64,000 nucleotides of DNA from Anaerolineae bacterium (lineage in GTDB: Bacteria; Chloroflexota; Anaerolineae; Aggregatilineales; Ch27). The stretch is taken from positions 17,605 to 81,604 of the forward strand of contig JABLXG010000001.1 of the NCBI GenBank assembly GCA_013178165.1, read 5' to 3'. Below the pieces are notes generated by a model. The model was not told the DNA's origin. It ran no database searches and saw only the letters and a list, made by a program, of their open reading frames with translations. The position numbers and the translations under genes were made by a program. Shown piece after piece: positions 22,739 to 58,774 of the stretch (within the stretch, counting starts at the first letter, position 1; every line of letters starts with the position of its first letter).

Positions 22739-22773
22739 GGTGGGTGGAAGGGAACTATTCCCCTCCACCCACC
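22739..22773. other. Strong intergenic stem-loop without a U tract
   Basis: GGTGGGTGGAAGGGA-ACTAT-TCCCCTCCACCCACC, one mismatch, between the DUF5666-LysM and GT-C genes. Confidence 0.55.
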
Positions 22774-22790
22774 AGTGACATTAACTGTGC

Positions 22791-22955
22791 TTAGTCGTCA
22801 TCGGCGTTGTCGGAGTGGTCGTCATTGTCGTTCTCATTGCGATTGTTGTTGTGATCGTCGCCCTGGTTGTCGTTCGAACTCGTGTTGTCATCATTGTTGT
22901 TGTCATCATTGTTATCGTTCCAGTTGTCGTTATCCCGGTTGTCATTGTTGTCATT
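22791..22955. repeat. Imperfect trinucleotide repeat encoding an Asn/Asp tail (a second tract lies near 23161-23245)
   Basis: Encodes NDNNDNRDNDNWNDNNDDNNNDDN...DNADDD. Confidence 0.75.
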
Positions 22956-24005: not shown

Positions 24006-24171
24006 GTGGACCTCCTGTAAGGTTCTCCAAGACAAGTGTGATGGCATAGTCACTATTTCCGATAATACCGACTTAAAAAATAGGAAAAGGTTGCGCAGAA
24101 AAACGGTGGGACTTTAGTCCTGCTGGCAGGCAGGGGAACAAACCCGTTTGTTGGAATGCAGGGGGAATCAC

Positions 24172-24203: not shown

Positions 24204-24205
24204 TG

Positions 24206-24278
24206 TGCCGAGGCCCAGACTTGAACTGGGGACCCCTTGATTTTCAGTCAAGTGCTCTACCAACTGAGCTACCTCGGC
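24206..24278 (-). tRNA. trnF: tRNA-Phe (GAA), CCA not encoded
   Basis: GCCGAGGTAGCTCAGTTGGTAGAGCACTTGACTGAAAATCAAGGGGTCCCCAGTTCAAGTCTGGGCCTCGGCA: 7-bp acceptor stem, CTTGA/TCAAG anticodon stem around GAA, TTCAA T-loop. Confidence 0.96.
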
Positions 24279-34423: not shown

Positions 34424-35197
34424 ATGAGTGATAGACCTGAGCCAGAGCCTGTCCCTGAGATTCCCTCCCAGCCGCTTTCAATGACGGATGCGCTGGCTAC
34501 GCTGAGTCAGGGTGTCATTCAGGATGATCACGGGGTGTTGCCGTGGGGATCGAACTACGCCTATCTGGTCACGGTTGCTGATGAGCGTCGCGCTTTGCTG
34601 GCAGTATACAAACCCCAGCGCGGTGAAAGGTCGCTGTGGGATTTTCCAGATGGCACGTTGTGCTACCGCGAGGTGGCGGCCTATGTCGTTTCGGAAGCGC
34701 TGGACTGGGCCATTGTGCCGCCTACAGTGTTGCGCGGCGGGCCTTACGGCCTGGGATCGCTCCAGTTCTTTGTTGATCACGATCCGGAGATCAACTACTT
34801 TACGCCCCTGCCGCCGGAATGCGGGGAACAACTGCAACGCATGGCCGTTTTTGACTACCTGATCAACAACGCGGATCGCAAGGGCGGGCATTGCCTGCTG
34901 GATTCACAGGGGCATCTGTGGGGAATCGATCACGGCGTGTCATTTCACTATCAGCTCAAGTTGCGAACCGTGATCTGGGATTATGCCGGGCAACCGCTGC
35001 CTGAGCCGATTGTGGACAGTCTGAAGGCGCTGGACACCGTGCTAAGCGACCCGGCGACATTGCTTCGCCAGACGCTGGGGGGCTTGCTGTCTGCCCGTGA
35101 GGTTGATGCATTGCTGGCGCGGTTGCACCATCTGTTGCAGACACGGCGGTTTGTCCTGCCGGGCAGGGGGCCAAATTATCCCTGGCCGCCAGTCTAG
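34424..35197 (+). CDS. SCO1664-family PI3/4-kinase-like protein
   Basis: GSNYAYL, AVYKPQRGERSLWDF, REVAAY, NNADRKGGH and WGIDHGVSF. Confidence 0.9.
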   Translation: MSDRPEPEPVPEIPSQPLSMTDALATLSQGVIQDDHGVLPWGSNYAYLVTVADERRALLAVYKPQRGERSLWDFPDGTLCYREVAAYVVSEALDWAIVPPTVLRGGPYGLGSLQFFVDHDPEINYFTPLPPECGEQLQRMAVFDYLINNADRKGGHCLLDSQGHLWGIDHGVSFHYQLKLRTVIWDYAGQPLPEPIVDSLKALDTVLSDPATLLRQTLGGLLSAREVDALLARLHHLLQTRRFVLPGRGPNYPWPPV

Positions 35198-43698: not shown

Positions 43699-44904
43699 TC
43701 AACTGTCCGCAGTGCGCTTTTGCCAGGTAACGTGCTGGGTGCCGCGCGCCCAGCGCCACAGCCCGACCAGGGCGGCCAGATTGGAGCTGACGAAGAAGTA
43801 GATGACATTGAGCAGGCGATAATGCCTGCCGCGCCGTTCCGCCAGCCAGCCAGCCAGCGCCAGGCCATAAAAGGCCAGCTGGCCCAGCAGGATCAGCCCT
43901 CCCCACCAGCCGCGCAACAACAACGCATCTTCCAGAAAGTGGCCTGTCATTGGCTGGCTCAGCAGGACAGCAAGCAGATTGGCCAGGAGGATGAGCAGCA
44001 TCAATACCGGCGTGAGCGGGCGCAATAGCTTATGGGAGAACAATCGGAAGGCAAGTCCTGGAGTGGGGGCTTTGAGGTATCCGGCAGAGAACAGCGCCTG
44101 ATAGCGCCCGGCATTGATACGCACCCGACGATTGAACTCGTCGCTCATCGTTGCGCTGGCGTCGTCGTAGCTGATGGCGTCCGGCTCATAGACGACGCGA
44201 TAGCCCTGTCGCAGGACTTCCATCGCGATGCTGAATTCGTCGTTGATGATTCCGGTGCGCAATGGCCGGAACAAAGCCCGCCGGATGGCGAACATGTTGC
44301 CGTGAACAGCAACAGTGCTGCCAGTCTTGCTTTCCCAACGGCGCAGGGCGGCCTCATAGCGCCAGTACAGGCCGGCAGGCTTGGCGACAGCGGTGGCGGC
44401 ATCCCAGACAGCTAGTGTTCCCACCACAACGCCAACGGTGGGATCAGCGAAGCGTCGGGCCAGGATGCGCAGGCTCTCGGATTCGTAGCTCGGTGAGGCG
44501 TCACTCAAGACCACGATCTCACCAGTCGCGTGGGCAAAGCCAGTATTGACGGCAGCCATCTTTCCCCCGCGAAAGGGTTGCTCAATCAGTGTGACGCCGC
44601 GCACGGCGAATTCCCGCACGATGTCCGGCGTGCCATCGGAGCTGCCATCGTCGACCACCAGAATTTGCAGCCTGTCTCGCGGATAATTCAGCGTGAGGCT
44701 GTTGTTCAACTTGCGGCGGATGACATCAGCCTCGTTGTGAGCCGGGATCAGCAGGGTGAGGGTTGGCAGGCTGTCCGGGGCGGTGACTGGCGGAGTGCGT
44801 TTACCCCGCGCCAGGAGATACATAAATAGTGGGTAGCCGAAGTAGGTCCACAGGAAGGCAGCTACACAGATCCAGAAGATAAATACGAGAATGGGCAGGA
44901 TCAC
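43699..44904 (-). CDS. Glycosyltransferase family 2, membrane-bound
   Basis: LIPAHNE, VVDDGSSD, VLSDAS, INDEF and RRVRINAG; TM helices at both ends. Confidence 0.9.
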   Translation of the reverse strand: MILPILVFIFWICVAAFLWTYFGYPLFMYLLARGKRTPPVTAPDSLPTLTLLIPAHNEADVIRRKLNNSLTLNYPRDRLQILVVDDGSSDGTPDIVREFAVRGVTLIEQPFRGGKMAAVNTGFAHATGEIVVLSDASPSYESESLRILARRFADPTVGVVVGTLAVWDAATAVAKPAGLYWRYEAALRRWESKTGSTVAVHGNMFAIRRALFRPLRTGIINDEFSIAMEVLRQGYRVVYEPDAISYDDASATMSDEFNRRVRINAGRYQALFSAGYLKAPTPGLAFRLFSHKLLRPLTPVLMLLILLANLLAVLLSQPMTGHFLEDALLLRGWWGGLILLGQLAFYGLALAGWLAERRGRHYRLLNVIYFFVSSNLAALVGLWRWARGTQHVTWQKRTADS

Positions 44905-44927: not shown

Positions 44928-46625
44928 TCAGCGCGCACCTTGCCGCTTGAGCACTTGCCCAATTGTACGCAGCATAATCTGAATGTCCAATGCGAAGCTG
45001 ATTTTGTCGATATAGAGCATGTCCCAGCGTAGCCAGTCGTCAAAGTCAGTGCTGCCCCGCGCCCCGATCTGCCACAGGCCGGTGATCCCAGGGCGGACCG
45101 TCAGGCGTTCGGTATGCAACAGGGTATAACTATCCAGCCCCCAGCTGGTGGGTCTGGGTCCAACGATACTCATATCGCCGCGCAGCACGTTGAAAATCTG
45201 CGGCAGTTCATCCAGGCTCGTCTTGCGGAGGATGCGGCCTACCCGCGTCACACGCGGATCACGGGCGAGTTTAAGCGGCTCGGCTAATTTGCCATCCGGG
45301 CCAAGTTTGGCCAGCCCCTGAGCGGCCAACTCCTTGAGTTTGGCCTCGGCATCAGGAACCATGGTACGGAACTTGTACATTTTAAAACGCCGGCCACCCA
45401 GCCCGGTGCGCTGCTGCACAAAGAAGATCGGGCGGCCTCCGTCGAGGTAGACCAGCAGCATCAGGACGAGCATCAGCGGCACGGTAACCGGCATGCTGAT
45501 TACCACCAGGGTGATGTCGATCAGGCGCTTGAGCACCATGTATACCAGACGGGCGCTGGCACTCTGGTATGGCAGCTCGTTAACCCAGAAATCGGGGTCA
45601 TTAGGGTGTTGGCTGCCTGAAGAGGAGGGACGCGGCTGGTCAGCGTAGTCTGTGGGCAGAGGCTGAAAGAGTTGCCTGATCCAGGAGACGGGCTGTATGG
45701 CGCTGGCGGAACGTTTTGTGGCAGTCTCTGCGGTTGCCTGCCTGGATGAGGGTGGGACAACCGCGGAGACCAGTTGATCGCTACGCGCGCCACCCTGCGG
45801 TGGACGCTGCTGATCCTCAGGCTGCAAGGGGATGGGATGCAGCAGGGCAGCATCCAGTAGATCGCGGTAGATGAGACCGTCCTCCGGGAAGGCGGCGACG
45901 CCCACGGCTACTTCCAGGCCCAGGCGCATCTTGATCAGGGTATGAATCTGTCGTGCCAGGCGGATCGCCTGCTCGCGGTCGGTCTCTGGCAGGCAAATCA
46001 CCAGGTTGTCGCCGCTCCAGGCGATGGTATCGCTGCGGTAGATGGCCGACATGGCGATCTGAGCGATGCGCACCTTGAGGTAGCGCTTCTGGAAAGCCGC
46101 CTCCAGGTTGAAACGATCGGTGATGTGTTCCTGCATCTCTTCAAGCCATTCCACCCGCAGGGCGACAAACCCCACCGGGCGGTCGAAGCGTCGGGCGCGG
46201 AACAGCTCATTGTTGATCTTCTCCTCACCTTCGGCCTCGGAGAGCACGCTTGACTTCTCTGGGGTAAGCAGCACGTTCTCAATGGCCTTCTCAATGTTGG
46301 CTGTGGCCAGTGAGATAACACGGGCTACGGAAACGGTCAGGATCAGGACGACTACCTCGGTAATGATCAACGGCAGGGGGGTGTCCGGGTGACCGATCGT
46401 CACTTTGGCAAGGCCGTACAGGATCAGCGTAGGTATCAATACGTACTCTGAACGCTTGCCCAGGTCTGGCAGGGCCAGGATGGTGACAGCGACCATGGCG
46501 GCGATGACATAGACAAAGGAGTCCAGGTCGATGTTGCCGAAATCCTGAATGTCTGGCCGTTCCAGATTGAACAGAATTACCAGCCAGATTGTCAGACCGA
46601 TGAGCAGGAGTCGGAACCTAGCCAT
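44928..46625 (-). CDS. Priming sugar transferase (WcaJ/CpsE-like) fused to an N-terminal TM bundle and a degenerate GGDEF-like domain
   Basis: C-terminal [52 protein letters not shown] and RPGITGLWQ. Middle domain [11 protein letters not shown]...[18 protein letters not shown]...[10 protein letters not shown]. Confidence 0.88.
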
Positions 46626-46858: not shown

Positions 46859-47971
46859 TTAATGTAGAGTCTGATTGATCTTTACCATCCAGGATGCCAT
46901 GATGCGGTAGAACGTCGGGTTGACAATCCAGCGTTGGACCGGTATCCGCCACACTGCATGCCGACCGTTGAATGTTCTTCGCAGGGCTTCCAGGCTTTCC
47001 AGCCATTTCTGCAGCAGGAAACGGCCTTCGTAAAGCGCCAGGAGCAACGGTTCGGGCTGACTGCCGGCGAAGTAGCCTGCCAGGAAGGCTTGACTGAGTG
47101 CGTCGATCATCGCTGGCGTGGGGAAGGTGGCCAGCGAAAGAAGACGCGCCCGGCGGCTCTTAAGATCGGCTACCAGCTTGCCCAGATCGTAGTAGGGACT
47201 GTCCAGTCGATCAAGCGCTGTATCCATGCTTACAACGCTCTGGTCAGGGAGCAGGAAGAAATTACGCGCATGTAAGTCTCCATGCACCCAGACCTGGCGG
47301 TCATCGCTTACCTGCTGCAGGGCGGTGAGGGTCGGCTGCCAGAGCGGCCAGCTTTCTAAGTCCACGCCGCAGGCGCGGAGTTGCTGGACATGTTCCAGCA
47401 GGATAGCCAGGCTATCCGCCGGACCAAAACACCGATCGGCTGGCGCGTTGTCAACGGGCAGCTCATGTAACCAATGCAGCCACTTTCCGCAGCGCTGTAG
47501 CATGTGCATCGCTTGCTTCATCCCCTGGCGGCTGAGCAAATGGCGTGGTGACAGGTTGTTGTCATATAATGGCTGGCCAGGGACAAAGTCCATGATCAGA
47601 GCGTTGATGTCCGGGAGATAGGCTTCCGGGTGGACTGCGCGCAGGTGTGGATCATCCTGTCGGAGGAAATGCCGGTAAACCCGCAGCAGGCTTTCGTACT
47701 CGTGTTGGCCGCGAAGCAGCAACTCTTCGGACTGATACGACACCGCTGCAGTGGCCTGGTCAGGGAAGCGCATGATCTTGACGACCAGCTGGCGTTGTTG
47801 CTGTTTCGTTCCGATGGTCAGGAAGTACAACGTGCTCCAGGGTTTTGTGATGACGGTCGGAGGACGCTGTAACTGCCAGGGGGATGGAAGCGGGTGTTTC
47901 CCATTGAAGTAAGCAAGGACAGCACTGATGGTAGCTTCGGGGGGAAGAAATGTTTCAGGTTTGAATTTCAT
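46859..47971 (-). CDS. Aminoglycoside-phosphotransferase/Kdo-kinase-like kinase
   Basis: LVVKIMRF, LIMDFVPG, WVHGDLHARNF, SMDT and DLGKLVADL. Confidence 0.78.
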   Translation of the reverse strand: MKFKPETFLPPEATISAVLAYFNGKHPLPSPWQLQRPPTVITKPWSTLYFLTIGTKQQQRQLVVKIMRFPDQATAAVSYQSEELLLRGQHEYESLLRVYRHFLRQDDPHLRAVHPEAYLPDINALIMDFVPGQPLYDNNLSPRHLLSRQGMKQAMHMLQRCGKWLHWLHELPVDNAPADRCFGPADSLAILLEHVQQLRACGVDLESWPLWQPTLTALQQVSDDRQVWVHGDLHARNFFLLPDQSVVSMDTALDRLDSPYYDLGKLVADLKSRRARLLSLATFPTPAMIDALSQAFLAGYFAGSQPEPLLLALYEGRFLLQKWLESLEALRRTFNGRHAVWRIPVQRWIVNPTFYRIMASWMVKINQTLH

Positions 47972-48002
47972 CTTTATAACCGTTTAAATGCGATATTTAA
48001 TG

Positions 48003-48008
48003 TATAAT
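48003..48008 (+). promoter_or_regulatory. -10 element of the right-arm EPS promoter
   Basis: TATAAT in an AT-rich divergent intergenic region; no clear -35. Confidence 0.45.
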
Positions 48009-48078
48009 ATCGCCCGTTTTTCCGGATGAATGAGTTCTTTCGATTTTTGACTGGCCAAGCAAACAGAAGAGAGTTCCC

Positions 48079-49350
48079 ATGGAACTGCGTCAATATCTGC
48101 GTATTATACTGAGAAGCTGGTGGTTCATCATCCCAGTGACGCTGATCGCCCTGACGGCGTCCCTGGTATTCAGCTATGCAACCACCCCGATCTACCGCGC
48201 CGCATCGTCGTACGTGGCGGGCCTGGCCCCGGATGTTGGGGCTTCCTCTGATGCGATTATCTACGGCCTGGATACCCTGGCCGGTCGAGAACGCATCTTC
48301 TCGACCTATTGCGGCGTGCTTAACAGCCACAATGTGCGGCAGGACGCCTATCGCCTCATGGGGGTGAGCGATCCGGCAGGGCTGGGCCTGGACGACTATG
48401 TTGTCCAGTGCAATGTTCTGCCCGATTCCAACATCCTGTTGCTTATTGTGGAAGGCCCGGCGCCCACGCTGGTTACAAGGCTAAATGAAGCTGTTGGGTT
48501 GGCCGGGATGGCCCAGACCAACCGGCTATACCGACCGTTCCCGCTAGAACGGCTCGATCCGGTTGTCTTGGAGCCAGAGCCGGTGTCACCGAACTACACA
48601 CAAAATGCGGTGCTGGGCGCGGTACTGGGTCTGGTGCTGGGGATCACGCTGGCATTTGTGGTGGAGTATCTGCGCAGCCCACTCGAACGTATCGAGGGAC
48701 TGACCATCCGGGACCCGAAGCTCGGCGTGTACAACGAGCGCTACTTCCTCAGGCGGTTTGAGGAAGAGATCAAGCGGGCGCGGGTACGCAACCGTCCGAT
48801 CAGTCTGGCCTTCACCCAGCTGGTGCCGGATGAGGACTTCAACCTTCTGGAAGAGCGTGTGCAGGACGCGCTGCTACGTCAGGCGGCTCTGTTTATGCAG
48901 GATTCGCTGCGAGAGGGTGACATTGTGGCCTATTTTGGCCAGCATGTCTTTGGCTTGCTGTTCGCCGAGACGCCGGGGGATGAGGCCAGATCGATGCTGG
49001 TGAACATGCACTATGATATCCGGTCACGCACCTTCCGGTTTGAGGATTTCAGCGCCAGCTTTGAGGCTAAGTCCGGTGTGGTGGAGAGCAGCGGTGGGCT
49101 GCTGGGTACGCAGGCGATGATGGACAAGGCGGCTGAGGCGCTGAGAGATGCGGAACTGGCCGGGGAGAATGCCATCCAACTCATCCGTACGTCGCCGGCG
49201 CCGTTTATCCAGGGCGATACTACCGGTGCTGCGACACCTACGCTGGCGTTTGACGCTTCTCCGCTGGATGACACACTGGGAACGACCTGGAGCACGGGGA
49301 ATCAGCCCCCTGTCTTTGATTCGGAACCTGAGCTACGGGAAGATCAGTAA
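48079..49350 (+). CDS. Wzz/CpsC-like polysaccharide co-polymerase fused to a degenerate GGDEF domain with an RxxD site
   Basis: N-terminal MELRQYLRII.RSWW...TPIYRA, and PVSPNY..NAVLGAVLGL..G before TM2. C-terminal DPKLGVYNERYF, EIKRAR.RNRP.SL, LREGDIVAYFGQHVFGLLFAET and AGEN. Confidence 0.85.
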   Translation: MELRQYLRIILRSWWFIIPVTLIALTASLVFSYATTPIYRAASSYVAGLAPDVGASSDAIIYGLDTLAGRERIFSTYCGVLNSHNVRQDAYRLMGVSDPAGLGLDDYVVQCNVLPDSNILLLIVEGPAPTLVTRLNEAVGLAGMAQTNRLYRPFPLERLDPVVLEPEPVSPNYTQNAVLGAVLGLVLGITLAFVVEYLRSPLERIEGLTIRDPKLGVYNERYFLRRFEEEIKRARVRNRPISLAFTQLVPDEDFNLLEERVQDALLRQAALFMQDSLREGDIVAYFGQHVFGLLFAETPGDEARSMLVNMHYDIRSRTFRFEDFSASFEAKSGVVESSGGLLGTQAMMDKAAEALRDAELAGENAIQLIRTSPAPFIQGDTTGAATPTLAFDASPLDDTLGTTWSTGNQPPVFDSEPELREDQ

Positions 49351-50909
49351 TGGCTGATCGCGTGTTAGTCAGTCCTGGAAAAGATATCTGGCAGTATCTG
49401 GATGACCGCCGGGTGCGCTACCGGTTGCTGGTGACCGGATTTGCGCTGCTGATGATCATCGTGGCACTCATCGGCGGCTATTTGATTGGCACAACTGACT
49501 ATGACTACGCGGTTCTCTTCGGGGTCATCGGGGTAGTTGTGGCGATGCTCGTTGCCGTACGGCCAGTGCTGGGTGTGTACATCCTGACCATCACCGTGTA
49601 TCTCAACCTGTCTGATCTTCTGGAGATCAACCTGGGTATTCCCAGCGCCAACAAGTGGCTGGTTGCCCTGATCTTCGTTGGTGTGGTTGCCAACCATATC
49701 GTGCTGTATCGGCGTCCGCTGGCCCTGGGCAGAACGCAATGGCTTATCATCATGTACGGGGTCCTGCTGTTGATAGGGGCGTTGCAGGCTGAGGAACAGT
49801 CTGTGGCAGTTTCCCAGTTCACTGATTGGGTGAAGGATTTCGTCATCCTGTTTATCGTCGTGCAGGTGACCATCAACGCTCGAGTCTGGATGCGCATGCA
49901 ATGGTTGTTGATCCTTTCTGCGGGGTTAGTGGCGGCGCTGAGCGTCTACCAGATCGTGACCAACGATGTGGGCAATACGTTCTGGGGACTGGCCAAAGCG
50001 CCAGTGCATCAGATTACTAGCGGGTTTGATAGCACCCGTGTGACAGGTCCGCTGGATGATCCCAATTTCTACGCCCAGATTTTGCTGATGGTCTTTCCGC
50101 TAGCAGTGTACCGATTTCTTGAGGAACGTTTCCTTGTCCTTCGCGTAATGGGTGGCGTGGCGGCGGCATTGATCGCGGCTGCGGCGATCTTTACCTATTC
50201 GCGCGGTGCGCTGATTTCGCTGGCGGTGATTGGGATACTGGTCACCCGTGAGCGACAGTGGAGTCCTTATAAGGCTGCGGTGATTGCGGTTGCTGTGGCG
50301 GTCGTACTGGTGGCTATCTTTCCAGTGGGCTACTGGGAACGTTTTGTGCAGTTGCGCGACCTTTTTGTGTCGGACACAGAGTTGCAGACAGAACGCTCCC
50401 TGCGCGGACGCACGAGTGAGATGATCATCGCCTGGCAGATGTTCCTGGATCACCCGCTGCTGGGGGTCGGGCCGGGGAACTACGACAAGAACTACCTTGA
50501 CTACTCATTTCTGCTGGGCATTGACAGCCGACTGCAGGAACGGCAGGCGCATAGTCTGTACCTTGAGACCGCGGCGGAGCTAGGGGCGGTCGGTCTCGCT
50601 GTGTTGTTCGGCATAATCCTCAGTACGTTTGCCAGCCTGCGCAGCGCAAAGCGTATGTTGAAGGCCAGCCATCGATCAGACCTGATACCCTGGGTGACTG
50701 GTCTGCAGTACGGTTTTACGTCGTATCTCATCACCAGCATATTTCTGCATGGTGACTACATTCGATACTTCTGGCTTCTGCTGGCTTTTGCTCTTTCCAG
50801 CGAAGGGATAGCGCGGTCGTTGCTGCAACAACACCGGGCACGGAGGGAACGCGAGGCGGCGGGGAACCAGAATCTGTTTGTCTTGCGGGAAACAGTACGG
50901 ATTTCGTAA
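49350..50909 (+). CDS. O-antigen ligase/Wzy polymerase-family membrane protein
   Basis: About 12 TM helices; R..G...DPNFYA, TYSRGA, HPLLGVGPGNY and AHSLYLETAAELG. Confidence 0.85.
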   Translation: MADRVLVSPGKDIWQYLDDRRVRYRLLVTGFALLMIIVALIGGYLIGTTDYDYAVLFGVIGVVVAMLVAVRPVLGVYILTITVYLNLSDLLEINLGIPSANKWLVALIFVGVVANHIVLYRRPLALGRTQWLIIMYGVLLLIGALQAEEQSVAVSQFTDWVKDFVILFIVVQVTINARVWMRMQWLLILSAGLVAALSVYQIVTNDVGNTFWGLAKAPVHQITSGFDSTRVTGPLDDPNFYAQILLMVFPLAVYRFLEERFLVLRVMGGVAAALIAAAAIFTYSRGALISLAVIGILVTRERQWSPYKAAVIAVAVAVVLVAIFPVGYWERFVQLRDLFVSDTELQTERSLRGRTSEMIIAWQMFLDHPLLGVGPGNYDKNYLDYSFLLGIDSRLQERQAHSLYLETAAELGAVGLAVLFGIILSTFASLRSAKRMLKASHRSDLIPWVTGLQYGFTSYLITSIFLHGDYIRYFWLLLAFALSSEGIARSLLQQHRARREREAAGNQNLFVLRETVRIS

Positions 50910-50983: not shown

Positions 50984-53900
50984 ATGAGACTCCAGGTGCG
51001 TTTAGCTTCCCTTGCATTGTTAAGCGGTCTTGTAGTGCTCATACTGGCGGTCATCCCCGGCGTTACTGCCCAGAATCCGACCCCTACTTTGACACCTACC
51101 CCGGTTCCTTTGCCGGCCTGCCAGCTCTACTACGTGACTGTGGACGAAGGTGTGGTGCGCTCCTGCGCAGGAACGGGTTGCAGCAGAGTGGGTGGTGTGC
51201 GCAACCAGGAGGTTGTGTGCGTTCTGGGCGTTTCAGAGACGCCGGGCTGGCTTCTGATCGATCCAGAACCACAGAATGCTGATTCCCCGATTCGCTATAT
51301 CAGCGCTGACATTGTAGCTCCTGGTCTGCCTGGCTATACCGGGGATGTTGACTGCGAAGCCTGGGAGATCACTGTGCCGGAAGCTGTTGTCCGGCGCTGC
51401 GCGGCGGAAACCTGCGCTGTGGTGGGTGGGTTGCCACAGGGCACCCAGATGTGTGTGAAGGAGTACGGTGGCCAGTACGAAGACTGGCTGTATGTCGATT
51501 ATTCCAGCTATAGCCCGATGAATGGCTGGGTTTTCGTTGATGTTGCCCAGCGCATCCCTGCCGGGACTCCGGTCGCTATTCCTACGCCCAATCGGCCGCT
51601 GGTCATCCCGGCGTCGATCCTCAGCGGTGCACAGACTCAGCCGGTCGCTCTGCAGGTAACACCCTCCCCGACCACTGCTGTGGAACTTGCGCCGCCGACC
51701 CTCACGCCAACGGCCACACTTCCGGTTTGTCCGCCAGGAGTGGTGACAGTAGGTGGAGCGGGCGAGCTCCCCGCCTATGCAGCGGAGTATCCATTCCAGT
51801 TCACCTACGTTGTACGTGCTGGAGACACGCTTCAGGGGGTAGCCGGTCGATTCTCTACAACCGTAGACGTGATTCGTCAGGCCAATGCCCTGCAACCAGC
51901 CGCGGTTATCCTGGTAGGGCAGCGGCTTATCATTCCGGTGCAGACAGCAGATGTCCCCGGACAGATCGTGGAGCCTGTGTCAGCCAGCGCTGGTGCGCCG
52001 GCCTGCGTGACCGCAACGCCCACTCCCATTCTGGCGGCGCCTCAGCAGGTGGTGGCCAGTGGCCCCCTGATTGCGCAGGACGTCGCTCTGGCCAGCTTCC
52101 AGGTGAGCAATGTTGATCTGGTTTCGCCACGGAGTGCTGCACAGTTCCGGCTGGACTTGCCTACCGATTGGCAGCTGGATGGTAACAACGTTCTGTACCT
52201 CAACCTGGAGTACACGCAGAATCTCTCGCCGCTTGCTGATCCCATGCGCCCGCTGGTGAGCATCCTCAATGTCAGGCTGGATGACACGCTGATTTCCTCC
52301 ACGACACTGACGGCTGCCAACGTGGGGTTACAGACGCTGGTGATCCCGTTGCCCTCGTCGCTGTTAGTCACGCCTGAACGGACTAACAGCCACCGGATCG
52401 ATGTCACCTTTATGGCGGATGATTTCTGCGACAGTAACTCGCTTGCCAGGGCGTTCATTCGTTCGGACCTGTCATACTTCCACTTCGAATACCACCGGCT
52501 ATCTCCCAGCCTGGATCTGGCACGGTACCCGGAGCCGTTCTATCACGGGACGGTTATCGGCACCGAGCCGGAGACGGTATGGCTGGTTCTGCCAGATGAG
52601 CCTTCGCTGGCCGACCTGGAATCCGCAGCGGGTATTGCGGCGGCGCTGGGCCAGCTCACTTTTGGCGAATTGCGTATCCGTGCTGCACTGGCTGGCGGGT
52701 TGACCGATCAGATTCGCCGTGAGAACAACCTGCTGCTTGTCGGTGAGATCGGCAAGCATGCCCTGATCGATCAGTTGTATGCTGACAACGCTCTGCCAAC
52801 ACAGCTCAGCGGCAATGTGGTCAGGCTGAGCGGCCAGGAGGTAGCAGAATCGATCGGGCTTGTTCAACTCATTGCCAACCCGGATAACCCCATGCGCGCC
52901 ATCGGGGTAGTCACCGGTCTGAACGAAGCGGCGCTGCGCAAAGCAGCCCAGGCACTTTCTGGCCCGCCATCGGTGTTGAGCCTGGGCGGACCACTGGCGC
53001 TGGTCAGCGATGTGCGACCCAAGGCGGCAGTCCCGGTTGGCATGCGCACCGAAACCACGCTAACTTTTGCGGAACTTGGCGTGACGCAGATGCTGCTGGC
53101 CGGGATCGGCACACAGACAGCCAGTGTCAGGTTTACAGCGCCTGCCACGGCAACAATCGCCCCGGATGCCTCGGTTGATCTCATCTTCACCTATTCCGGG
53201 GCACTTGGCCGGGGTTCGACGGTGACCGTGTTGGTGAATAACACGCCCATCGCCAGTACGCTGCTGGCCCTGGAATCGGTTACCGGCGGCGTAGTGCACG
53301 AGACCGATGAGTTGGGCCGCAATCACCTGCGGGGGCGCATCCCGCCGGAAAGTATCCAGCCTGGCGCTGAGAATACGTTGACCATCCTGGTTAATGGCAT
53401 TGACAGTAACCCTGATGATTGCGTATTCCCCGACCCACTGGTTGCCTGGTTCAATGTCAGCCCGGAGAGTTCGATCTTCCTGCCTACCCAGACAGCTGAC
53501 CCGGCAGCCGTGACGCCGCTGTTAAGCTGGTTCCCGGTACCGTTTACCTCGCTGCCTGATCTCAGTGATGTGTTGATATCTTTGCCACGGGCGGCAGGCG
53601 CTACTGAGATCGAACAGGGTCTGCGGATGGTTGCGCGTCTTGGTGCGGAGACCGTTGGTGGGGAGGCGTTCCGCCCGCGGTTCAGCGTCGGAGACCTGCC
53701 GGAGGGGATCGACCTGGCCCAGTACCATCTGATCGTCATCGGGCGGCCGTCAACCAATCCGCTGCTGGCAGCTCTCAACGCTGATCTACCGCAGCCTTTC
53801 GTCCCGGGCACGGATACACTCGAGCAAAAGCTGGATGACGTAGTCTACCAGTTGCCACCCGGCTACGACGTTGGGTTGCTGGAGATAGTCAAGTCGCCCT

Positions 53901-54424
53901 GGTCACCGGAGCGAGCCATTCTGGTCATTGCCGGGTTGGGTGATCGCGGTCAGGCGGATGCCGTACGCGCCCTGGCGGATAACATCTACTGGCGTGGCGA
54001 TTTAGAAGGCGATGTAGTATTTGTCTCGCCGAACTCGATCGCTGTGATTGACACGCGTACGGTGTATGCGCAGGAAGATCTGGTGACGGCGTTGCCGGAA
54101 CTGGCCACCCAGTCGGCTATCGCGGCTCAGGCGACGAGCACCCCCATCCCGGTCTATACAGTAACACCCGGCCCAACGCCTACAGCAACTGCGACCAATA
54201 CACCGACACCGGTCGTTACCGCAACACCGATTGTTCCCTTGCCATCGCCGACGGCGCCGACACCGATCCCGACCTTCCCGCCGCTTGATCCGGAGCAACT
54301 GCAGCCCGCCCGGATCGGCCAGCCGGAGTGGGTCAATATCCTGCTGGTTATCACAGCGGTTGTACTGGTCACCACGATACTTTTCGGTATCCTGGTTGCC
54401 GCACGTTCCCGGAGGCGCCCTTGA
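50984..54424 (+). CDS. Cell-surface protein: two Cys-rich SH3b-like domains, LysM, BcsB-like repeats and a C-terminal TM anchor
   Basis: Signal peptide; LysM YVVRAGDTL...N.L...ILVGQRLIIP. Two jelly-roll plus alpha/beta repeats (QFRLDLP.DW...LNVRLDD...DLARYPEPF; LLSWFPVPF) as in BcsB, each followed by a ...LVIAG/VVTG strand. Ends with a TM helix and RSRRRP. Confidence 0.72.
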   Translation: MRLQVRLASLALLSGLVVLILAVIPGVTAQNPTPTLTPTPVPLPACQLYYVTVDEGVVRSCAGTGCSRVGGVRNQEVVCVLGVSETPGWLLIDPEPQNADSPIRYISADIVAPGLPGYTGDVDCEAWEITVPEAVVRRCAAETCAVVGGLPQGTQMCVKEYGGQYEDWLYVDYSSYSPMNGWVFVDVAQRIPAGTPVAIPTPNRPLVIPASILSGAQTQPVALQVTPSPTTAVELAPPTLTPTATLPVCPPGVVTVGGAGELPAYAAEYPFQFTYVVRAGDTLQGVAGRFSTTVDVIRQANALQPAAVILVGQRLIIPVQTADVPGQIVEPVSASAGAPACVTATPTPILAAPQQVVASGPLIAQDVALASFQVSNVDLVSPRSAAQFRLDLPTDWQLDGNNVLYLNLEYTQNLSPLADPMRPLVSILNVRLDDTLISSTTLTAANVGLQTLVIPLPSSLLVTPERTNSHRIDVTFMADDFCDSNSLARAFIRSDLSYFHFEYHRLSPSLDLARYPEPFYHGTVIGTEPETVWLVLPDEPSLADLESAAGIAAALGQLTFGELRIRAALAGGLTDQIRRENNLLLVGEIGKHALIDQLYADNALPTQLSGNVVRLSGQEVAESIGLVQLIANPDNPMRAIGVVTGLNEAALRKAAQALSGPPSVLSLGGPLALVSDVRPKAAVPVGMRTETTLTFAELGVTQMLLAGIGTQTASVRFTAPATATIAPDASVDLIFTYSGALGRGSTVTVLVNNTPIASTLLALESVTGGVVHETDELGRNHLRGRIPPESIQPGAENTLTILVNGIDSNPDDCVFPDPLVAWFNVSPESSIFLPTQTADPAAVTPLLSWFPVPFTSLPDLSDVLISLPRAAGATEIEQGLRMVARLGAETVGGEAFRPRFSVGDLPEGIDLAQYHLIVIGRPSTNPLLAALNADLPQPFVPGTDTLEQKLDDVVYQLPPGYDVGLLEIVKSPWSPERAILVIAGLGDRGQADAVRALADNIYWRGDLEGDVVFVSPNSIAVIDTRTVYAQEDLVTALPELATQSAIAAQATSTPIPVYTVTPGPTPTATATNTPTPVVTATPIVPLPSPTAPTPIPTFPPLDPEQLQPARIGQPEWVNILLVITAVVLVTTILFGILVAARSRRRP

Positions 54425-56619
54425 TGCCCTGCAGGATCTTCAGAGCAATCCTGATCATTCTGCTGGGGGTGGTAATTGGCTGTGAAGCAACCAGTGCGCA
54501 GAACGCACCGCTGACATGGTGGGTGGTGGGCAGTACAGTTAAGGTGCTGCCCACCGCCGTTCCTCCTGCACAGCCAGAAACACCTATCCTCCTGTATGCG
54601 GCGCGGCGGGAGTACGTCCCCTTCCAGATTGTGCTGCGTGCCAACCAGATCGCGCTCAAGTTTGATGCGCTTTCCGTGTCCTATCCTGAGGAGTACTTCG
54701 GCCTACAGCTCTATCGTGAGCAGTATGTGCCCATGTTGCATGTTCCGGATCCGGAGATAGTCTCGCTGGCCCGCCTGACGGACGCGGGCGCTATCCCTGA
54801 TGGATTGCGCCCATTTGATAGCCCCTTTGAGGTGCGGACTGAGCAACCCACCGTCATCTGGGCTGATCTCTATGTGCAACCGGAGACACCGCCGGGGGAC
54901 TACACGTTAACGCTGACCATCAAAGGCATGGGCGAACGCCGCGTTACGGTTCGTGTATACCCGGTTGATCTGGAACCGCAACCGGCGGTGACCGTGATCA
55001 TCCCTGAAGACGCTGACTGGACGATCCCCTTCTTTGGTGGCGATGATCCGACAGCTTTCCACCGGGCGATGAATACCTTGCTGCTGGCGCATGGTGTGGT
55101 ACCGGGGACTTTTGTGGCCCAGCCCGTAATGATAGCGGATGGCTGGGATTTCTCGCCGCTGGATGCGGAACTGGATGCGCTTCCGACAGGGGCCTTCTTC
55201 TATGCGCCCCTGCCGTACGACGATCGCTCCGGGCAGTATCTGTTGCGGGATGAACATGGCCGGCCTTATCAACAGGCCATGTTCGACGACCCACAGTTTG
55301 TTCGCCAGGCGGAAGCTTTCTTCCGCGCGCTGGCGGACTATCTGCGTAGCAAAGACCGCCTGGAAGGGGCGCTGGTATACCCGGATGATGAGACGCGCTG
55401 GGTTGGCGATGAACCATGGCATGCCGGGCCGCGTGGATATGCCCGGCTGTCCCGGTGGACGGCAATAGTGCGGGTGGCAGGGTTGCGCGTGACGGCTTCC
55501 GGCGTAGATCCGGTGCCGCCTGGCCCGGCTGAGCTTGGCTGGCTGGACCCCGATCTGGTGACTGATGATACCCACGTGCATGTGGATGTGCTGGATGCGG
55601 CACCGGAGGTTTTTGCGGCCTGGATGTCCAGGCCGGGCAAGAGCAGCAGCGTATACCTGAATGAATATGGCGATCTGATTGACCTGACAGCAGCGATCCA
55701 GCGTGGCCTGATCTGGCATGTCTACGCCAGGGATGTGCGGATGATTGCCGGATACTCGGCGCTGGAATGGGTAGGCAGCGAAGACTACGATCTGGTGGAC
55801 CCGTGGCAGGACGTGACGGCGCTGTACCCGGTATCCGGTTACGGCGGTGGTGCGCTGGTCTGGCCTGGGCCGCAGCCCTCAATCCGCCTGAAACTGTTGC
55901 GGGAGGGCCTGGAAGACACTCGCCTGCTGGACCTGTATGCGCAGGCCACTTCGCCTGAGGAAGCCCGCGACCTGGCCAGGCAGCTCACTCCCGGCCCGCT
56001 GGCCCACCAGAACCCGCCCGCTGATCTCTGGGATCAGGCACATGAGGCCTTGCTGGTGGCGTTGACTGAGGGTGAACGGGCAGACTTCAGTAACTTCCGC
56101 CCGCTGCCAGCGGCAATCACGCAAGACTACTTGCTGATCGATTTTGATCGGCTTGGCCAGCCAGAGGAATGGGGGTTCACCGGTGTGACGGCTGAAGTCG
56201 TTGAGTCGCCATGGGCGGAAAGCGGCCAAGCTCTTCGTCTTACATTTGATTCCGAAGCCAACGAGGCCGGGTTGTGGTTTGAAACGTCAGACTGGGAGGG
56301 GTGGCGGGCGCTGCAATTTGAGGTCAGGAGTCTCAGCCCTTACTTCACCACACTTGATGTTGGTCTCACAGATGCAGACGGACATTACCTGTTGTTGCCG
56401 GACAAAGGGCTGCTGCTAGGGCCGAACGCAGACATGACGGTCACCCTGCCGTTGCTGATTCCAATGGACGAGACGGAGCCTTTTGACTGGTCACAGATCA
56501 GGTATTTCAGCCTGCAGGTGGCAACTTCATATGAAGCGCGGGATGGATTCGGTCAGTGGGGTGTCTATCCGCTGGGGAGCCGTACCCTGATTCTTGATAA
56601 TTTCAGGCTGGTGAAATGA
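54424..56619 (+). CDS. Secreted DUF4091/GH123-like putative glycoside hydrolase with a C-terminal CBM-like domain
   Basis: Signal peptide; LYAARREYVPFQIVL, YPDDET, and G.LVWPG..PSIRLKLLREGLED. Start ATG 54424 overlaps the upstream stop. Confidence 0.7.
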   Translation: MPCRIFRAILIILLGVVIGCEATSAQNAPLTWWVVGSTVKVLPTAVPPAQPETPILLYAARREYVPFQIVLRANQIALKFDALSVSYPEEYFGLQLYREQYVPMLHVPDPEIVSLARLTDAGAIPDGLRPFDSPFEVRTEQPTVIWADLYVQPETPPGDYTLTLTIKGMGERRVTVRVYPVDLEPQPAVTVIIPEDADWTIPFFGGDDPTAFHRAMNTLLLAHGVVPGTFVAQPVMIADGWDFSPLDAELDALPTGAFFYAPLPYDDRSGQYLLRDEHGRPYQQAMFDDPQFVRQAEAFFRALADYLRSKDRLEGALVYPDDETRWVGDEPWHAGPRGYARLSRWTAIVRVAGLRVTASGVDPVPPGPAELGWLDPDLVTDDTHVHVDVLDAAPEVFAAWMSRPGKSSSVYLNEYGDLIDLTAAIQRGLIWHVYARDVRMIAGYSALEWVGSEDYDLVDPWQDVTALYPVSGYGGGALVWPGPQPSIRLKLLREGLEDTRLLDLYAQATSPEEARDLARQLTPGPLAHQNPPADLWDQAHEALLVALTEGERADFSNFRPLPAAITQDYLLIDFDRLGQPEEWGFTGVTAEVVESPWAESGQALRLTFDSEANEAGLWFETSDWEGWRALQFEVRSLSPYFTTLDVGLTDADGHYLLLPDKGLLLGPNADMTVTLPLLIPMDETEPFDWSQIRYFSLQVATSYEARDGFGQWGVYPLGSRTLILDNFRLVK

Positions 56620-57734
56620 CAGGCAGGCGAGACTACAGGGTGCTGCTGGTAGATCTGGCGCGGGCCTATGGGGGCGCAGAAGTCCGCGTGCTCACCCAGG
56701 CCAGGGCCTTGCAGGATGGCGTGGCACGGTGCGCTGTGGCAACGCTGGCAGGTAGCCCGCTACACCAACGGCTGATAGCAGAAGGCTTGCCGGCTGAAGC
56801 GATTGCCATCCAGCGTGGCAATCCGATCATGGCCGGTGTGCTGCGCCGAACCATCCGCGCTGGTCGCTACGAGGTTGTTGACGCCCACAATGTGCAGTCC
56901 ATCCTGTGGGGGCATCTGGCGGCGTTGCTGGCTGGGGCGCGGGGACGGGTGGCCACGATTCACAGCGACTATGGCCGGGAATATCCCGGCGTGAAGGGGA
57001 TACTCTATCGCAGCGTGCTCTGGTTCGACCGGCTCCTGGCCCGGCAGTATATCACCGTGACCGATGTGCTGCAGGCCAGTCTTACGGCCCGTGGCGATGG
57101 TTCCCGTAGTACCCTGATTTACAATGCAGTGCCAGTGCCGGAAGCGCCGTTGTTGTCAGTGGATCCGGCTGTGCGCCCGGCATGGGGAGTTGGCGCGGAT
57201 GATTTTGTGGTGGCGATCATTGCCCGCCTGAAACCAGTCAAGGGCCACTGGTATCTGCTGAAGGCCCTGGCGCTCCTGGCTGACCTGCCGCAGGTGAAGC
57301 TGCTGGTGGTGGGCGATGGCCCGCTGCGTCCGGCGCTGGAAGCGCAGGCGAATATGCTGGGGATTGCTGAGCGCGTGCACTTCTGCGGATTTGTGGAAGA
57401 TGTCCCGGCGGTTTTGCGGGCGGTCGATGCCGTCTGCCTGCCGTCGCTGTCAGAGGCGCTACCGTATGTAGTACTGGAAGCAGCCGCTTTTGCGCGGCCA
57501 TTGGTGGTCACGCAGGTGGGTGGGATGGCAACGCTCCTACGGGATGGCGAGACTGCCCGTGTGGTGCCGCCACAGGATGCGCCAGCTCTGGCGGAAGCCC
57601 TGCGCTGGGTAGCCACGCATCCCGTCGAGCGGCAGGCGATGGGTTTGGCTGCTTACGCGCTGGTCAAGGGTGCGTTCAGTGTGGAGACGATGGTGGCGAA
57701 GACGCTGCAAGTCTACGATCGAGCGCTGGCATGA
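56616..57734 (+). CDS. Glycosyltransferase family 4
   Basis: GGAEVRV, IARLKPVKGH, VVGDGPLR and PSLSEALPYVVLEA. Confidence 0.93.
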   Translation: MTGRRDYRVLLVDLARAYGGAEVRVLTQARALQDGVARCAVATLAGSPLHQRLIAEGLPAEAIAIQRGNPIMAGVLRRTIRAGRYEVVDAHNVQSILWGHLAALLAGARGRVATIHSDYGREYPGVKGILYRSVLWFDRLLARQYITVTDVLQASLTARGDGSRSTLIYNAVPVPEAPLLSVDPAVRPAWGVGADDFVVAIIARLKPVKGHWYLLKALALLADLPQVKLLVVGDGPLRPALEAQANMLGIAERVHFCGFVEDVPAVLRAVDAVCLPSLSEALPYVVLEAAAFARPLVVTQVGGMATLLRDGETARVVPPQDAPALAEALRWVATHPVERQAMGLAAYALVKGAFSVETMVAKTLQVYDRALA

Positions 57735-58774
57735 GCAAAGCACAGATTGCCTTTAAGGTACTTATAGCGCTCAGGGCTCCTGTTTTGCTGAATGCCTACT
57801 GGGGAGCCGACCGGTTGACCGTTCTGGCTTACCACCGGATCGCGGATCCGGCTGCGCCGGGGTTTCAGTACTATCCGCCGAATGTGAGCGCGACGCCGGA
57901 GAAGTTCGCCCAGCAGATGGCGTATATCCGGGAGCACTTCAATGTGGTCGACCTGGAAGCGGTGAACGCCTTCCTGCATCATGGCCGGAGCCTACCACCA
58001 CGCCCGCTGCTCATCACGTTCGATGACGGCTATCTGGATAACTACTCCCACGCCTATCCAGTATTGAAACACTACGGTTTCCCGGCGGTGATCTTCCTCC
58101 TAACCAGCCGCATGGATAACCCGCTGCCGGCATGGTGGGACGAGTGCGCCTATTACTTCCATCACACGCAGCGGCAGGCCGCCACCCTGCCTTTGATCGG
58201 TGAGCGCGACCTGTCGTCGCCGGCGTTACGCCGGGCAGCGTGTGAGGCGCTGGTAGGGCAGTTAAAGCGCATCCCTGAAGCGGAGAAACTGGTTGCGCTC
58301 CGGCAGGCGGGCGAAGCGTTGCAGGTTGATCCACCGGGGCCTGATCCCGATCTATTCATGGCCTGGGATCACGTCCGCGAACTGGTGAACGCAGGAATTG
58401 CCTGCCAGCCACACACAGTCACGCATCCCATCCTGGCGCGGGTTGATGAGGAAGTGCAGCGACGCGAGATTGTTGGCTCGTGCGAACGGATTCGAGAGGA
58501 GACCGGCCAGACGATCAGCGCATTTGCTTACCCAAACGGCGGCGTGGGCGATTACACAGCGACTACCATGCAGTTGCTGCGGCAAGCTGGCATCAGGACG
58601 GCGTTCACGCTGCTAACGGGCCCGCTGCGCTCACAGGTGGCGCGGCAGCATCCGCTGGAAATCCCGCGGGTGTACCTTGGCGGACGCGACACCATGGAGC
58701 GGTTTGTGTTCAAAGTGATGGGTCTGCCCGCGCTGATGGAGCACCCGCCTTTCATCGGCCAGGCCGCAGTATAG
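57731..58774 (+). CDS. Polysaccharide deacetylase (CE4/NodB)
   Basis: VLAYHRI, ITFDDGYLDN, HTVTHPIL and FAYPNG. Confidence 0.92.
   Translation: MSKAQIAFKVLIALRAPVLLNAYWGADRLTVLAYHRIADPAAPGFQYYPPNVSATPEKFAQQMAYIREHFNVVDLEAVNAFLHHGRSLPPRPLLITFDDGYLDNYSHAYPVLKHYGFPAVIFLLTSRMDNPLPAWWDECAYYFHHTQRQAATLPLIGERDLSSPALRRAACEALVGQLKRIPEAEKLVALRQAGEALQVDPPGPDPDLFMAWDHVRELVNAGIACQPHTVTHPILARVDEEVQRREIVGSCERIREETGQTISAFAYPNGGVGDYTATTMQLLRQAGIRTAFTLLTGPLRSQVARQHPLEIPRVYLGGRDTMERFVFKVMGLPALMEHPPFIGQAAV

Follow-up and report, generated by a model that had tools for sequence, protein, structure and literature searches.

What is a relative of BcsB doing in a stretch of bacterial DNA in which BcsA is not found? 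Bacterial polysaccharide export is usually taught as a set of separate routes, synthase-, Wzx/Wzy- and ABC-dependent, with BcsB regarded as a hallmark of the first. The stretch analysed here (henceforth the window; 64,000 nucleotides of a contig from an Anaerolineae bacterium, to which all coordinates refer) contains a gene for a BcsB-like tail-anchored protein (50984..54424, + strand, ATG start, 1146 aa, stop included; recognised from the list of open reading frames (ORFs), Pfam and Foldseek). We give about an even chance to the answer that this protein is a divergent tail-anchored BcsB relative recruited into a Wzx/Wzy-type exopolysaccharide (EPS) pathway of Anaerolineae-class Chloroflexota, where it would serve as a glycan-binding scaffold together with Wzy and the polysaccharide co-polymerase (PCP).

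By fold and domain content the protein belongs to the BcsB superfamily. The Pfam family BcsB (PF03170) matches aa 368-940 with 152.7 bits against a gathering threshold of 21 (E=1.6e-44, profile positions 7-548 of 606), and the profile of the family core retrieves E. coli BcsB (9fmt) from the PDB with an E-value of about 1e-21. Both share the motif FP(x)PF...DLS, and in the profile alignment WFPVPF...DLSD of the window protein falls on FPFS..DLS of E. coli BcsB. In the AlphaFold model (mean predicted local distance difference test, pLDDT, 62.9) the core mostly reaches values of 70-90, and the top 22 Foldseek matches in the PDB are all BcsB (9fmt, 6yg8, 7l2z, 9b8i, 4hg6_B; E-values from 4.6e-32 to 3.5e-18), with a target-normalised TM score of 0.64-0.69 over about 720 columns for E. 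coli BcsB and 17-19% identity to solved BcsB structures. The BcsB fold proposed in a first-pass annotation of this DNA is thus present, and the two BcsB-like repeats it had described reflect a duplication inside the core that is known from BcsB itself; the N-terminal and C-terminal halves of the core align in hhalign with a probability of 99.8% (E=1e-27). Repeat 1 (aa 358-675, 52055..53008, + strand) comprises a jellyroll domain of the carbohydrate-binding type and a flavodoxin-like domain (hhalign, secondary structure, Foldseek), while repeat 2 (aa 676-1040, 53009..54103, + strand) carries the WFPVPF...DLSD and LPQPF motifs (profile alignment to 9fmt, invariant columns). The four domains, two jellyroll plus flavodoxin-like repeats, are those of BcsB (4hg6_B, 6yg8, 7l2z, 9fmt), as are the signal peptide and the C-terminal transmembrane (TM) anchor. 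Nevertheless, the protein does not qualify as the cellulose-synthase subunit: every NCBIfam BcsB equivalog scores it far below its cutoff (NF008323 with 72.9 bits against 750, the others with 14.9-56.6 bits against 922-1098).

The regions that surround the core set the BcsB-like clade further apart from BcsB. In the window protein a Pro/Thr stalk (aa 1041-1113, 54104..54322, + strand; 64% Pro/Thr/Ser/Ala), identified by its composition and as part of a clade-wide spacer, connects the core to the anchor; the spacer measures 73 aa by residue count and 78 aa by the envelope of the hidden Markov model (HMM). It is Pro/Thr/Ser-rich throughout the clade, with a median of 79 aa in the close relatives (Group 1, see below) and of 56 aa elsewhere. 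The spacer is absent from E. coli BcsB, whose last domain runs directly into an amphipathic helix and the TM segment, and it is this direct packing of the core on the membrane or synthase that the intervening stalk replaces. The C-terminal TM helix itself (~aa 1115-1140, 54326..54421, + strand; hydropathy) is flanked by a conserved juxtamembrane QPxWVN and a basic tail RSRRRP. Residues P1114, W1116 and L1120 are invariant among the aligned homologs, and a TM helix with a basic tail is retained in 153 of the 162 full-length clade members.

At the other end, the signal peptide region (~aa 1-28, ...PGVTA followed by Q, 50984..51067, + strand) has a hydrophobic core at aa 7-25 according to hydropathy, and an N-terminal hydrophobic segment is found in 147/162 family members. 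It is followed by two SH3b repeats (Pfam SH3_3, model strands), the first at aa 45-113 (51116..51322, + strand) with Cys46, 61, 66 and 79 (VRSCAGTGC), and the second at aa 123-190 (51350..51553, + strand) with Cys124, 139, 144 and 157 (VRRCAAETC), these four residues per repeat being among a total of 12 Cys in the protein. In the homologs that bear the module (alignment A1) the SH3b cysteines are invariant or nearly so (C144 invariant, the others at least 90%), and the Foldseek matches that come after BcsB are SH3b wall-binding modules of endolysin and NlpC/P60 proteins (4krt, 6biq). A LysM domain (aa 275-318, 51806..51937, + strand; Pfam E=2.1e-10) is bordered by Pro/Thr-rich linkers (aa 196-272 and aa 320-358, pLDDT below 50); altogether, the protein has four linkers, 52-65% Pro/Thr/Ser/Ala, which coincide with low-confidence regions of the model. 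The signal peptide, the two four-Cys SH3-like repeats, the LysM domain with its Pro/Thr linkers and the C-terminal helix with its basic tail had all been read from the sequence in the first-pass annotation, and all of them were recovered. Its idea of a peptidoglycan tether holds in part: the SH3b and LysM domains are there in the window protein, but the tether is not a feature of the family, as both are missing from many members. Because the N-terminal extensions in Group 1 vary from ~50 to 590 aa, we regard the SH3b/LysM module as an accessory decoration. Such domains are common surface modules in the source organism, since other exported proteins of the window bear them too, encoded in a cluster (18227-24053) that is centred on a sigma-70 gene and comprises wall-binding proteins: an SH3_3 protein (18227-19522, + strand) and, on the - strand, a LysM protein (19611-20504), the sigma-70-family factor (20497-21243), a 528-aa protein with no match in the Pfam scan (21182-22768) and a protein with DUF5666 and LysM (22791-24053), the others having been assigned by Pfam.

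No BcsA was detected alongside this BcsB-like gene. We compared the window with 63 related loci collected from public assemblies, GTDB species genomes and metagenomes, which were annotated by HMMs derived from the proteins of the cassette and by E. coli BcsA and BcsB probes. None of the 40 ORFs included in the Pfam scan of the window (39 of at least 200 aa and ORF 54328-56619) matches BcsA, PilZ or the cellulose-synthase family, and over the 842 kb of the window and the related loci the BcsA probe never exceeded 43 bits, matching only small TM glycosyltransferases of family 2 (GT2; 21-39 bits) and a MshEN-GT2 protein of the distant locus L058 (43 bits). The absence of a BcsA partner noted in the first-pass annotation therefore extends from the window to all of the related loci (about 780 kb), in which no PilZ was found either.

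Instead, the BcsB-like gene is the third of six tightly packed + strand genes, whose junctions measure -1, +74, -1, -4 and -4 nt. The first (48079..49350; Pfam/NCBIfam, topology, model) encodes a putative, Wzz-like PCP with two TM helices and an outer domain of ~140 aa, fused to a cytoplasmic degenerate GGDEF domain. Its stop codon overlaps the start of the second gene (gap -1), which encodes a polytopic protein of the Wzy_C family with ~11-12 TM helices (49350..50909; Pfam E=1.5e-21, 77.2 bits against 31.7, topology), a putative polymerase that we read as such because its gene adjoins that of the PCP. Downstream, the gene of a secreted GH123-like glycoside hydrolase (54424..56619, + strand, 731 aa) begins 1 nt within the end of the BcsB-like gene. 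Taken alone this protein has no significant Pfam match, but its profile matches beta-N-acetylgalactosaminidase 8k2f (E=4.3e-12), and GH123_cat is matched by 5/5 of its orthologs (best E=4.8e-6). It is followed, with a 4-nt overlap, by a glycosyltransferase of family 4 (GT4; 56616..57734, + strand; Pfam, NCBIfam), which scores 45 bits with NCBIfam PelF (cutoff 100), and by a polysaccharide N-deacetylase of carbohydrate esterase family 4 (CE4; 57731..58774, + strand; Pfam), which is PgaB/BpsB/IcaB-like (BpsB, PDB 5bu6, E=5.6e-17) and keeps the catalytic TFDD and HxxxH motifs.

Four genes are divergent to this operon, encoding an APH-like kinase, a polyprenyl-phosphate glycosyl-1-phosphate transferase (PGT), a membrane GT2 and a GH31 protein. 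The PGT (Bac_transf, 44928..46625, - strand; Pfam E=3.5e-63) provides the initiating transferase of a Wzx/Wzy pathway, with a TIGR03025 score of 256.6 bits that is somewhat under the cutoff of 295.55. The divergent APH-fold kinase-like protein (46859..47971, - strand; Pfam APH) is kept at the same position in the loci L001, L002, L010 and L011 and found no match in a sequence search of the PDB; it may conceivably be an N-acetylhexosamine 1-kinase. No ORF among the 40 matched the outer-membrane polysaccharide export (OPX) family in Pfam. The divergent intergenic region contains a perfect 8-bp inverted repeat, GCGATATT...AATATCGC (47990-48013), ~70 nt upstream of the PCP-GGDEF start, and within it a -10-like box, TGTATAAT (48001..48008, + strand; sequence, alignment), which is conserved in L001, L010 and L011 and is replaced by TATAAAAT in L002. 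The box and repeat are a possible promoter or operator of the operon; a generic scan for promoters and terminators gave nothing above shuffled sequence, and no riboswitch or other Rfam family was found near the operon.

The neighbourhood of the BcsB-like gene is strongly conserved. Group 1, i.e. the close relatives, comprises 26 loci, among which the named sources are all Chloroflexota (Anaerolineae, Aggregatilineales or 'Ca. Thermofonsia') and the L010 copy is 95% identical to the window protein. Counted over the loci with enough flank, a PCP-like gene lies upstream in 20/20 loci and Wzy_C immediately precedes the BcsB-like gene in 19/20, while GT4 and CE4 each lie downstream in 20/21 and the GH123-like gene in 10/21. 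PGT, TM-GT2 and Wzx (a Polysacc_synt flippase) occur within 10 kb in a subset (L006, L007, L009, L013, L015, L024), and Wzx adjoins the cassette in the same six loci and in L008. In 8/26 Group 1 loci (L003, L014, L017-L020, L022, L023) tandem BcsB-like paralogs of ~770 and 840-900 aa stand in for the single long BcsB-like and GH123-like genes, with GT4, CE4 and another GT4 downstream, which suggests a hetero-oligomer. The synteny persists in Group 2, where P0024, only 29% identical, lies in a full PGT, PCP, Wzy_C, Wzx, GT4 and CE4 cluster that has no GT2 and whose PCP bears a ParA/CbiA-like P-loop, as PCPs fused to bacterial tyrosine kinases (BY-kinases) do; in other Group-2 loci PCP-GGDEF, Wzy_C, PGT and Wzx are again the neighbours. 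Word-index searches for homologs yielded only ~24 clusters, the candidate list having probably been taken up by the Pro/Thr linkers. The clade proved far larger when 1.84 billion representatives were searched exhaustively with a profile: 3027 proteins matched at E<=1e-3, and 1079 (50%-identity clusters) still did so at E<=1e-30, with full-length matches and E<1e-106 for each of the best 150. These divide into two main subgroups, with 57 and 91 representatives.

The constant upstream neighbour, the PCP-GGDEF protein, may indicate how the system is controlled. Its GGDEF-fold domain reads REGD-IVAYF-GQHVF, so that the inhibitory site (I-site) REGD is kept and the GGDEF signature is replaced by the non-catalytic GQHVF; REGD and GQHVF, separated by five residues, correspond one to one with RKSD...GGEEF in DgcR, a diguanylate cyclase. 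All 28 aligned sequences with a GGDEF domain have a degenerate active site, and about two thirds of them keep RxxD. In the AlphaFold model (pLDDT 83.5) the C-terminal domain superposes on GGDEF domains with a TM score of 0.86 (rmsd 2.2 A), and the two TM helices enclose a short outer domain of alpha/beta type. The region of the second TM helix matches the Wzc/EpsF models of NCBIfam; orthologs carry precomputed PF02706 matches, the one from L036 also matches GNVR and that from L048 scores 42.6 bits, and a canonical PCP-BY-kinase (P0220) is among the homologs. The fusion occurs in ~44 clusters, automatically labelled 'diguanylate cyclase' or 'Wzz/FepE/Etk N-terminal domain-containing protein'. 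Judged from these residues, control by cyclic di-GMP (c-di-GMP) through the I-site of the PCP is possible. Among the related loci the cytoplasmic module is swapped at one and the same position: it is a BY-kinase-like ParA/CbiA-type P-loop in L008 (3372-4943), a REC receiver in L048 (1362-2540), a degenerate GGDEF domain together with the GNVR match in L036 (8703-9830) and a degenerate GGDEF domain in most other loci. The PGT of the window has three N-terminal TM helices and a ~250-aa cytoplasmic insert with a weak, degenerate GGDEF-like match (TIGR00254 E=4e-4, aa 186-260) and no canonical RxxD, the second GGDEF-derived module of the cluster.

The following scheme would accommodate these observations. 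Judging by their homologs, PGT, GT4 and the membrane GT2 would build a repeat unit containing N-acetylhexosamine (HexNAc) on a polyprenyl carrier; Wzx, adjacent in relatives and perhaps encoded elsewhere in the source genome, would flip it; and the Wzy_C protein and the two-TM PCP would polymerise the units at the outer face, with the degenerate GGDEF domain of the PCP in the place of the BY-kinase and its RxxD I-site possibly conferring a response to c-di-GMP. The BcsB-like protein would be held beside Wzy and PCP by its C-terminal helix, with a Pro/Thr stalk of 60-115 residues keeping the core off the membrane, the two jellyroll domains binding the nascent chain and, in the source organism, the two SH3b repeats and LysM pinning it to the wall. 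It may oligomerise like E. coli BcsB, which self-polymerises according to passages of a 2021 review (PMC8892547), and would act as an extracytoplasmic guide or conduit, the role of OPX proteins in classical diderms. CE4 would partly de-N-acetylate the polymer, and the GH123-like enzyme would trim or release it. The nearest relatives of CE4 are the poly-N-acetylglucosamine deacetylases BpsB/PgaB/IcaB, and those of the GH123-like protein beta-N-acetylgalactosaminidases; a Wzx/Wzy-type pathway that makes a HexNAc-rich, partly deacetylated polymer is the most economical reading. A polymer other than cellulose had been anticipated in the first-pass annotation, and the neighbours (PGT, GT4, GT2, CE4 deacetylase and a GH123-like beta-N-acetylhexosaminidase) point the same way, while its further proposal, that the protein guides this polymer through the wall, is conjectural; of Wzy, Wzz and GT2, which it had named only as targets for interaction modelling, PCP-GGDEF and Wzy_C, immediately upstream, proved to be conserved partners, while the GT2 is patchy. 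More tentatively, since we would sooner doubt than affirm it as a whole, the combination of a PCP with degenerate GGDEF, BY-kinase or REC, a Wzy_C protein and a tail-anchored BcsB-like protein may constitute a hybrid secretion module, in which the BcsB-like protein, perhaps as an oligomeric crown on its Pro/Thr stalk, would be the extracytoplasmic conduit of a Wzy pathway that has no OPX protein and c-di-GMP would act directly on the PCP.

Several observations weigh against recruitment into a Wzx/Wzy-type pathway or against parts of the scheme. The best NCBIfam match of the Wzy_C protein is a 'putative O-glycosylation ligase' model, itself below cutoff, its sequence search of the PDB gave no match, and the Wzy_C family also holds ligases and O-oligosaccharyltransferases. 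The window has no Wzx according to Pfam and to tblastn with the Wzx proteins of four relatives, and in several relatives Wzx is not within 10 kb either. The PCP scores 24.3 bits with Pfam Wzz, just under the gathering threshold of 25.5, and in the fold search of the PCP-GGDEF model the top 50 comprise only GGDEF matches and no PCP structure. A PCP-like gene is seen in only 5/11 Group-2 loci, although the weaker counts there are partly due to the HMMs having been trained on Group 1. RxxD is lost in ~1/3 of the PCP-GGDEF orthologs, one subclade (L004, L006, L013, L024, L007, L026, L032), and control by c-di-GMP could therefore not be universal. CE4 shows neither a clear signal peptide nor a TM helix, and depending on its compartment it may act on the finished polymer or on a lipid-linked intermediate. 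Finally, the long flexible stalk speaks against a rigid capping of the channel in the manner of BcsB on BcsA.

The alternative that survives best, though we consider it unlikely, is a synthase of the Pss/Yda type. The B. subtilis YdaJKLMN system (PMC5422440) is comparable to the Pss system of Listeria; its YdaN is BcsB-like. BcsB outside cellulose synthesis is already known from Listeria monocytogenes, where PssD (BcsB ortholog), PssC (IcaA-like GT2) and PssE (I-site receptor) make a non-cellulose EPS (PMC4125290). By analogy, the BcsB-like protein would pair with the 401-aa GT2 as a processive synthase-translocase like PssC-PssD, the degenerate GGDEF protein would be a PssE/YdaK-like c-di-GMP receptor, and CE4 and the glycoside hydrolase would be modifying enzymes. 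In both cases a BcsB homolog is associated with a non-cellulose EPS and, in the same cluster, with a membrane protein that has a degenerate GGDEF domain and an intact RxxD I-site, in an organism without a classical outer membrane. The GT2 of the window (43699..44904, - strand; Pfam, NCBIfam, topology) has one N-terminal and three C-terminal TM helices, D, DxD-like, GxxxxRR and ND motifs and a weak NCBIfam match to PgaC_IcaA. A synthase-like arrangement is encountered only in L058, a much more distant locus, where the BcsB-like gene is accompanied by the MshEN-GT2 and a small TM-GGDEF gene. In that locus (3398-12167) the GT2 protein, 1341 aa long, consists of five c-di-GMP-binding MshEN domains and Glyco_trans_2_3, an unusual architecture for a receptor, and the TM-GGDEF protein beside it has 298 aa.

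Against such a synthase stands the GT2 itself. In accordance with the first-pass annotation, which had listed a protein of 401 aa with RRVRI in place of Q(Q/R)xRW and no PilZ, it has no PilZ and reads NRRVRINAG at the position of QxxRW, conserved in 6/6 aligned orthologs, all of which thus have neither the Q nor the W. Its nearest solved relative is PcManGT (6yv7, E=1.5e-34), while BcsA scores 28 bits, in the nucleotide-binding part only; PcManGT (6YV7) is a mannosyltransferase, and the GT2 PslC, from a pathway (Psl) that is Wzx/Wzy-dependent, is the most similar to it (PMC10569066). A TM-GT2 is found within 10 kb in 9/16 long-flank Group-1 loci, only alongside PGT and/or Wzx, and is missing from the tandem-BcsB loci and from L008, whereas PCP and Wzy_C are essentially always adjacent. 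Listeria, by contrast, has a processive IcaA/BcsA-like GT2 partner and a stand-alone TM-GGDEF receptor, while in the Chloroflexota the GGDEF domain is fused to the PCP, Wzy_C is the conserved neighbour and the GT2, without QxxRW, is often distant. As a surrogate for BcsA, the GT2 was ranked low on account of its missing QxxRW, its affinity to PcManGT and its patchy co-location.

Next in rank, and likewise improbable, is that the BcsB-like protein has no role in export and either tethers the finished polymer between membrane and peptidoglycan or reports on its status to the PCP. The double tether, to the membrane at the C-terminus and to the wall by the N-terminal modules, the flexible stalk that sets the core apart from the membrane and the presence of carbohydrate-binding-type domains are all in keeping with such a function. 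Many family members, however, do without the wall-binding module, whereas all share the TM anchor and the adjacency to PCP and Wzy, which points to a role at the site of assembly. The sequence alone cannot separate this alternative from recruitment into the Wzx/Wzy-type pathway.

It is also conceivable, at a still lower rank and with little likelihood in our opinion, that the end product is the BcsB-like protein itself, a surface glycoprotein, tail-anchored and of sheath or S-layer-like type, with the cluster building a glycan that the Wzy_C enzyme attaches to the Pro/Thr linkers by O-glycosylation. Besides the O-oligosaccharyltransferases and ligases of the Wzy_C family and the 'O-glycosylation ligase' match mentioned above, this would agree with the long Pro/Thr linkers, the Thr/Pro stalk beside the C-terminal anchor, the self-polymerisation of E. 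coli BcsB and a weak match of the BcsB-like protein to Pfam S_layer_C (E=0.004), precomputed also for the homologs P0012 and P0023. The S_layer_C score, however, is below the Pfam cutoff (17.2 against 23.9 bits), the conserved adjacent PCP implies chain-length control, L008 has a PCP-BY-kinase, and CE4 together with a secreted glycoside hydrolase is typical of EPS systems. Furthermore, conservation lies in the BcsB core, which has the carbohydrate-binding fold, while the length of the stalk and the N-terminal decoration vary widely.

Ranked least likely, and hardly to be credited, is an ordinary BcsB that would make cellulose with a canonical BcsA from another part of the genome. In its favour, the NCBI pipeline labels some homologs 'cellulose biosynthesis cyclic di-GMP-binding regulatory protein BcsB', one homolog carries the UniRef name 'Cellulose synthase' and the bcsA searches covered, of the whole source genome, the 64-kb window, together with the related loci, but against this count the lack of BcsA in these 842 kb, the low equivalog scores and identity, the translational overlap within an operon of non-cellulose genes, the synteny that persists down to 29% identity and a stalk incompatible with the tight BcsA-BcsB packing of the solved complexes, as treated in passages of the 2021 review (PMC8892547).

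Recruitment into a Wzx/Wzy-type pathway, the reading we prefer, invites comparison with other polysaccharide systems. From BcsB proper, as summarised above, the clade differs in sequence, in the absence of BcsA and PilZ nearby, in the 60-115-aa Pro/Thr stalk and variable SH3b/LysM N-terminus, and in the location of the gene inside a PCP, Wzy_C, GT4 and CE4 operon. With PCP-2a Wzc and the Gram-positive CapA/CapB-type PCP-2b plus BY-kinase, the putative PCP of the Chloroflexota shares the two TM helices, the Wzz/GNVR signatures, a cytoplasmic C-terminal regulatory module and the position of its gene beside Wzy, and in L008 the version is a PCP with a ParA/CbiA-like P-loop. Unlike these, its module is otherwise a degenerate GGDEF domain (REC in L048) and not a tyrosine autokinase, its outer domain has only ~140 aa, and its companion is BcsB-like and not OPX/Wza. 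Pel systems are not known to have a BcsB-like protein. They are alike in having a GT4 (PelF), a CE4/hydrolase (PelA), a dedicated glycoside hydrolase and a degenerate-GGDEF receptor in the membrane (PelD), but the BcsB-like operon has no equivalents of PelE, PelG, PelB and PelC and has PGT, Wzy_C and PCP instead; by analogy with Pel, a GalNAc/HexNAc-rich, partly deacetylated polymer is plausible. PelD and PssE couple c-di-GMP to polymerisation in synthase systems, and PCP-GGDEF would possibly act alike (PMC4125290). With OPX/Wza the BcsB-like protein has in common only its proposed position, that of an extracytoplasmic partner of PCP and Wzy that leads the polymer from the membrane; there is no relation in sequence or fold, OPX proteins being outer-membrane lipoproteins and the BcsB-like protein being tail-anchored in the inner membrane.

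Elsewhere in the window, we found an archaeal-type DNA-end-resection operon in this Chloroflexota genome (10187-17985, + strand), comprising a Mre11-like phosphoesterase (10187-11581), a Rad50-like SMC protein with a zinc hook (11532-14546), NurA (14543-15703), a 203-aa ORF without a Pfam match and HerA/DUF87 (16282-17985). Pfam, from which these assignments derive, also identifies a 7TM-receptor/HD-hydrolase protein (7TMR-HDED and HD; 28682-30958, + strand) and a PI3/PI4-kinase-like domain in a small bacterial protein (34424-35197, + strand). At the gathering threshold, Rfam yields just one family for the window, represented by a single tRNA-Phe (GAA; 24205-24278, - strand).

In an incomplete search of the literature, we found no description of a BcsB homolog in a Wzx/Wzy-type cluster, of a PCP-GGDEF fusion or of BcsB in an EPS system of Chloroflexota; in the passages of the 2021 review, BcsB is tied to BcsA and Wzx/Wzy pathways come under a separate section (PMC8892547). 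If our reading is true, the export routes exchange parts, and a BcsB part has been adopted by the Wzx/Wzy route. Chloroflexota are a phylum without canonical outer-membrane machinery (PMC7332563), and the BcsB-like protein would be a candidate answer to the question of how Wzy polymers exit from the membrane in bacteria without Wza-type exporters. The PCP-GGDEF protein, a co-polymerase with a likely receptor domain, would then provide a direct post-translational link from c-di-GMP to Wzy-dependent polymerisation. The labels 'cellulose synthase BcsB' and 'diguanylate cyclase' are probably misleading for these genes, and may inflate the cellulose and c-di-GMP synthesis predicted for the Chloroflexota of wastewater, sediments and hot springs.

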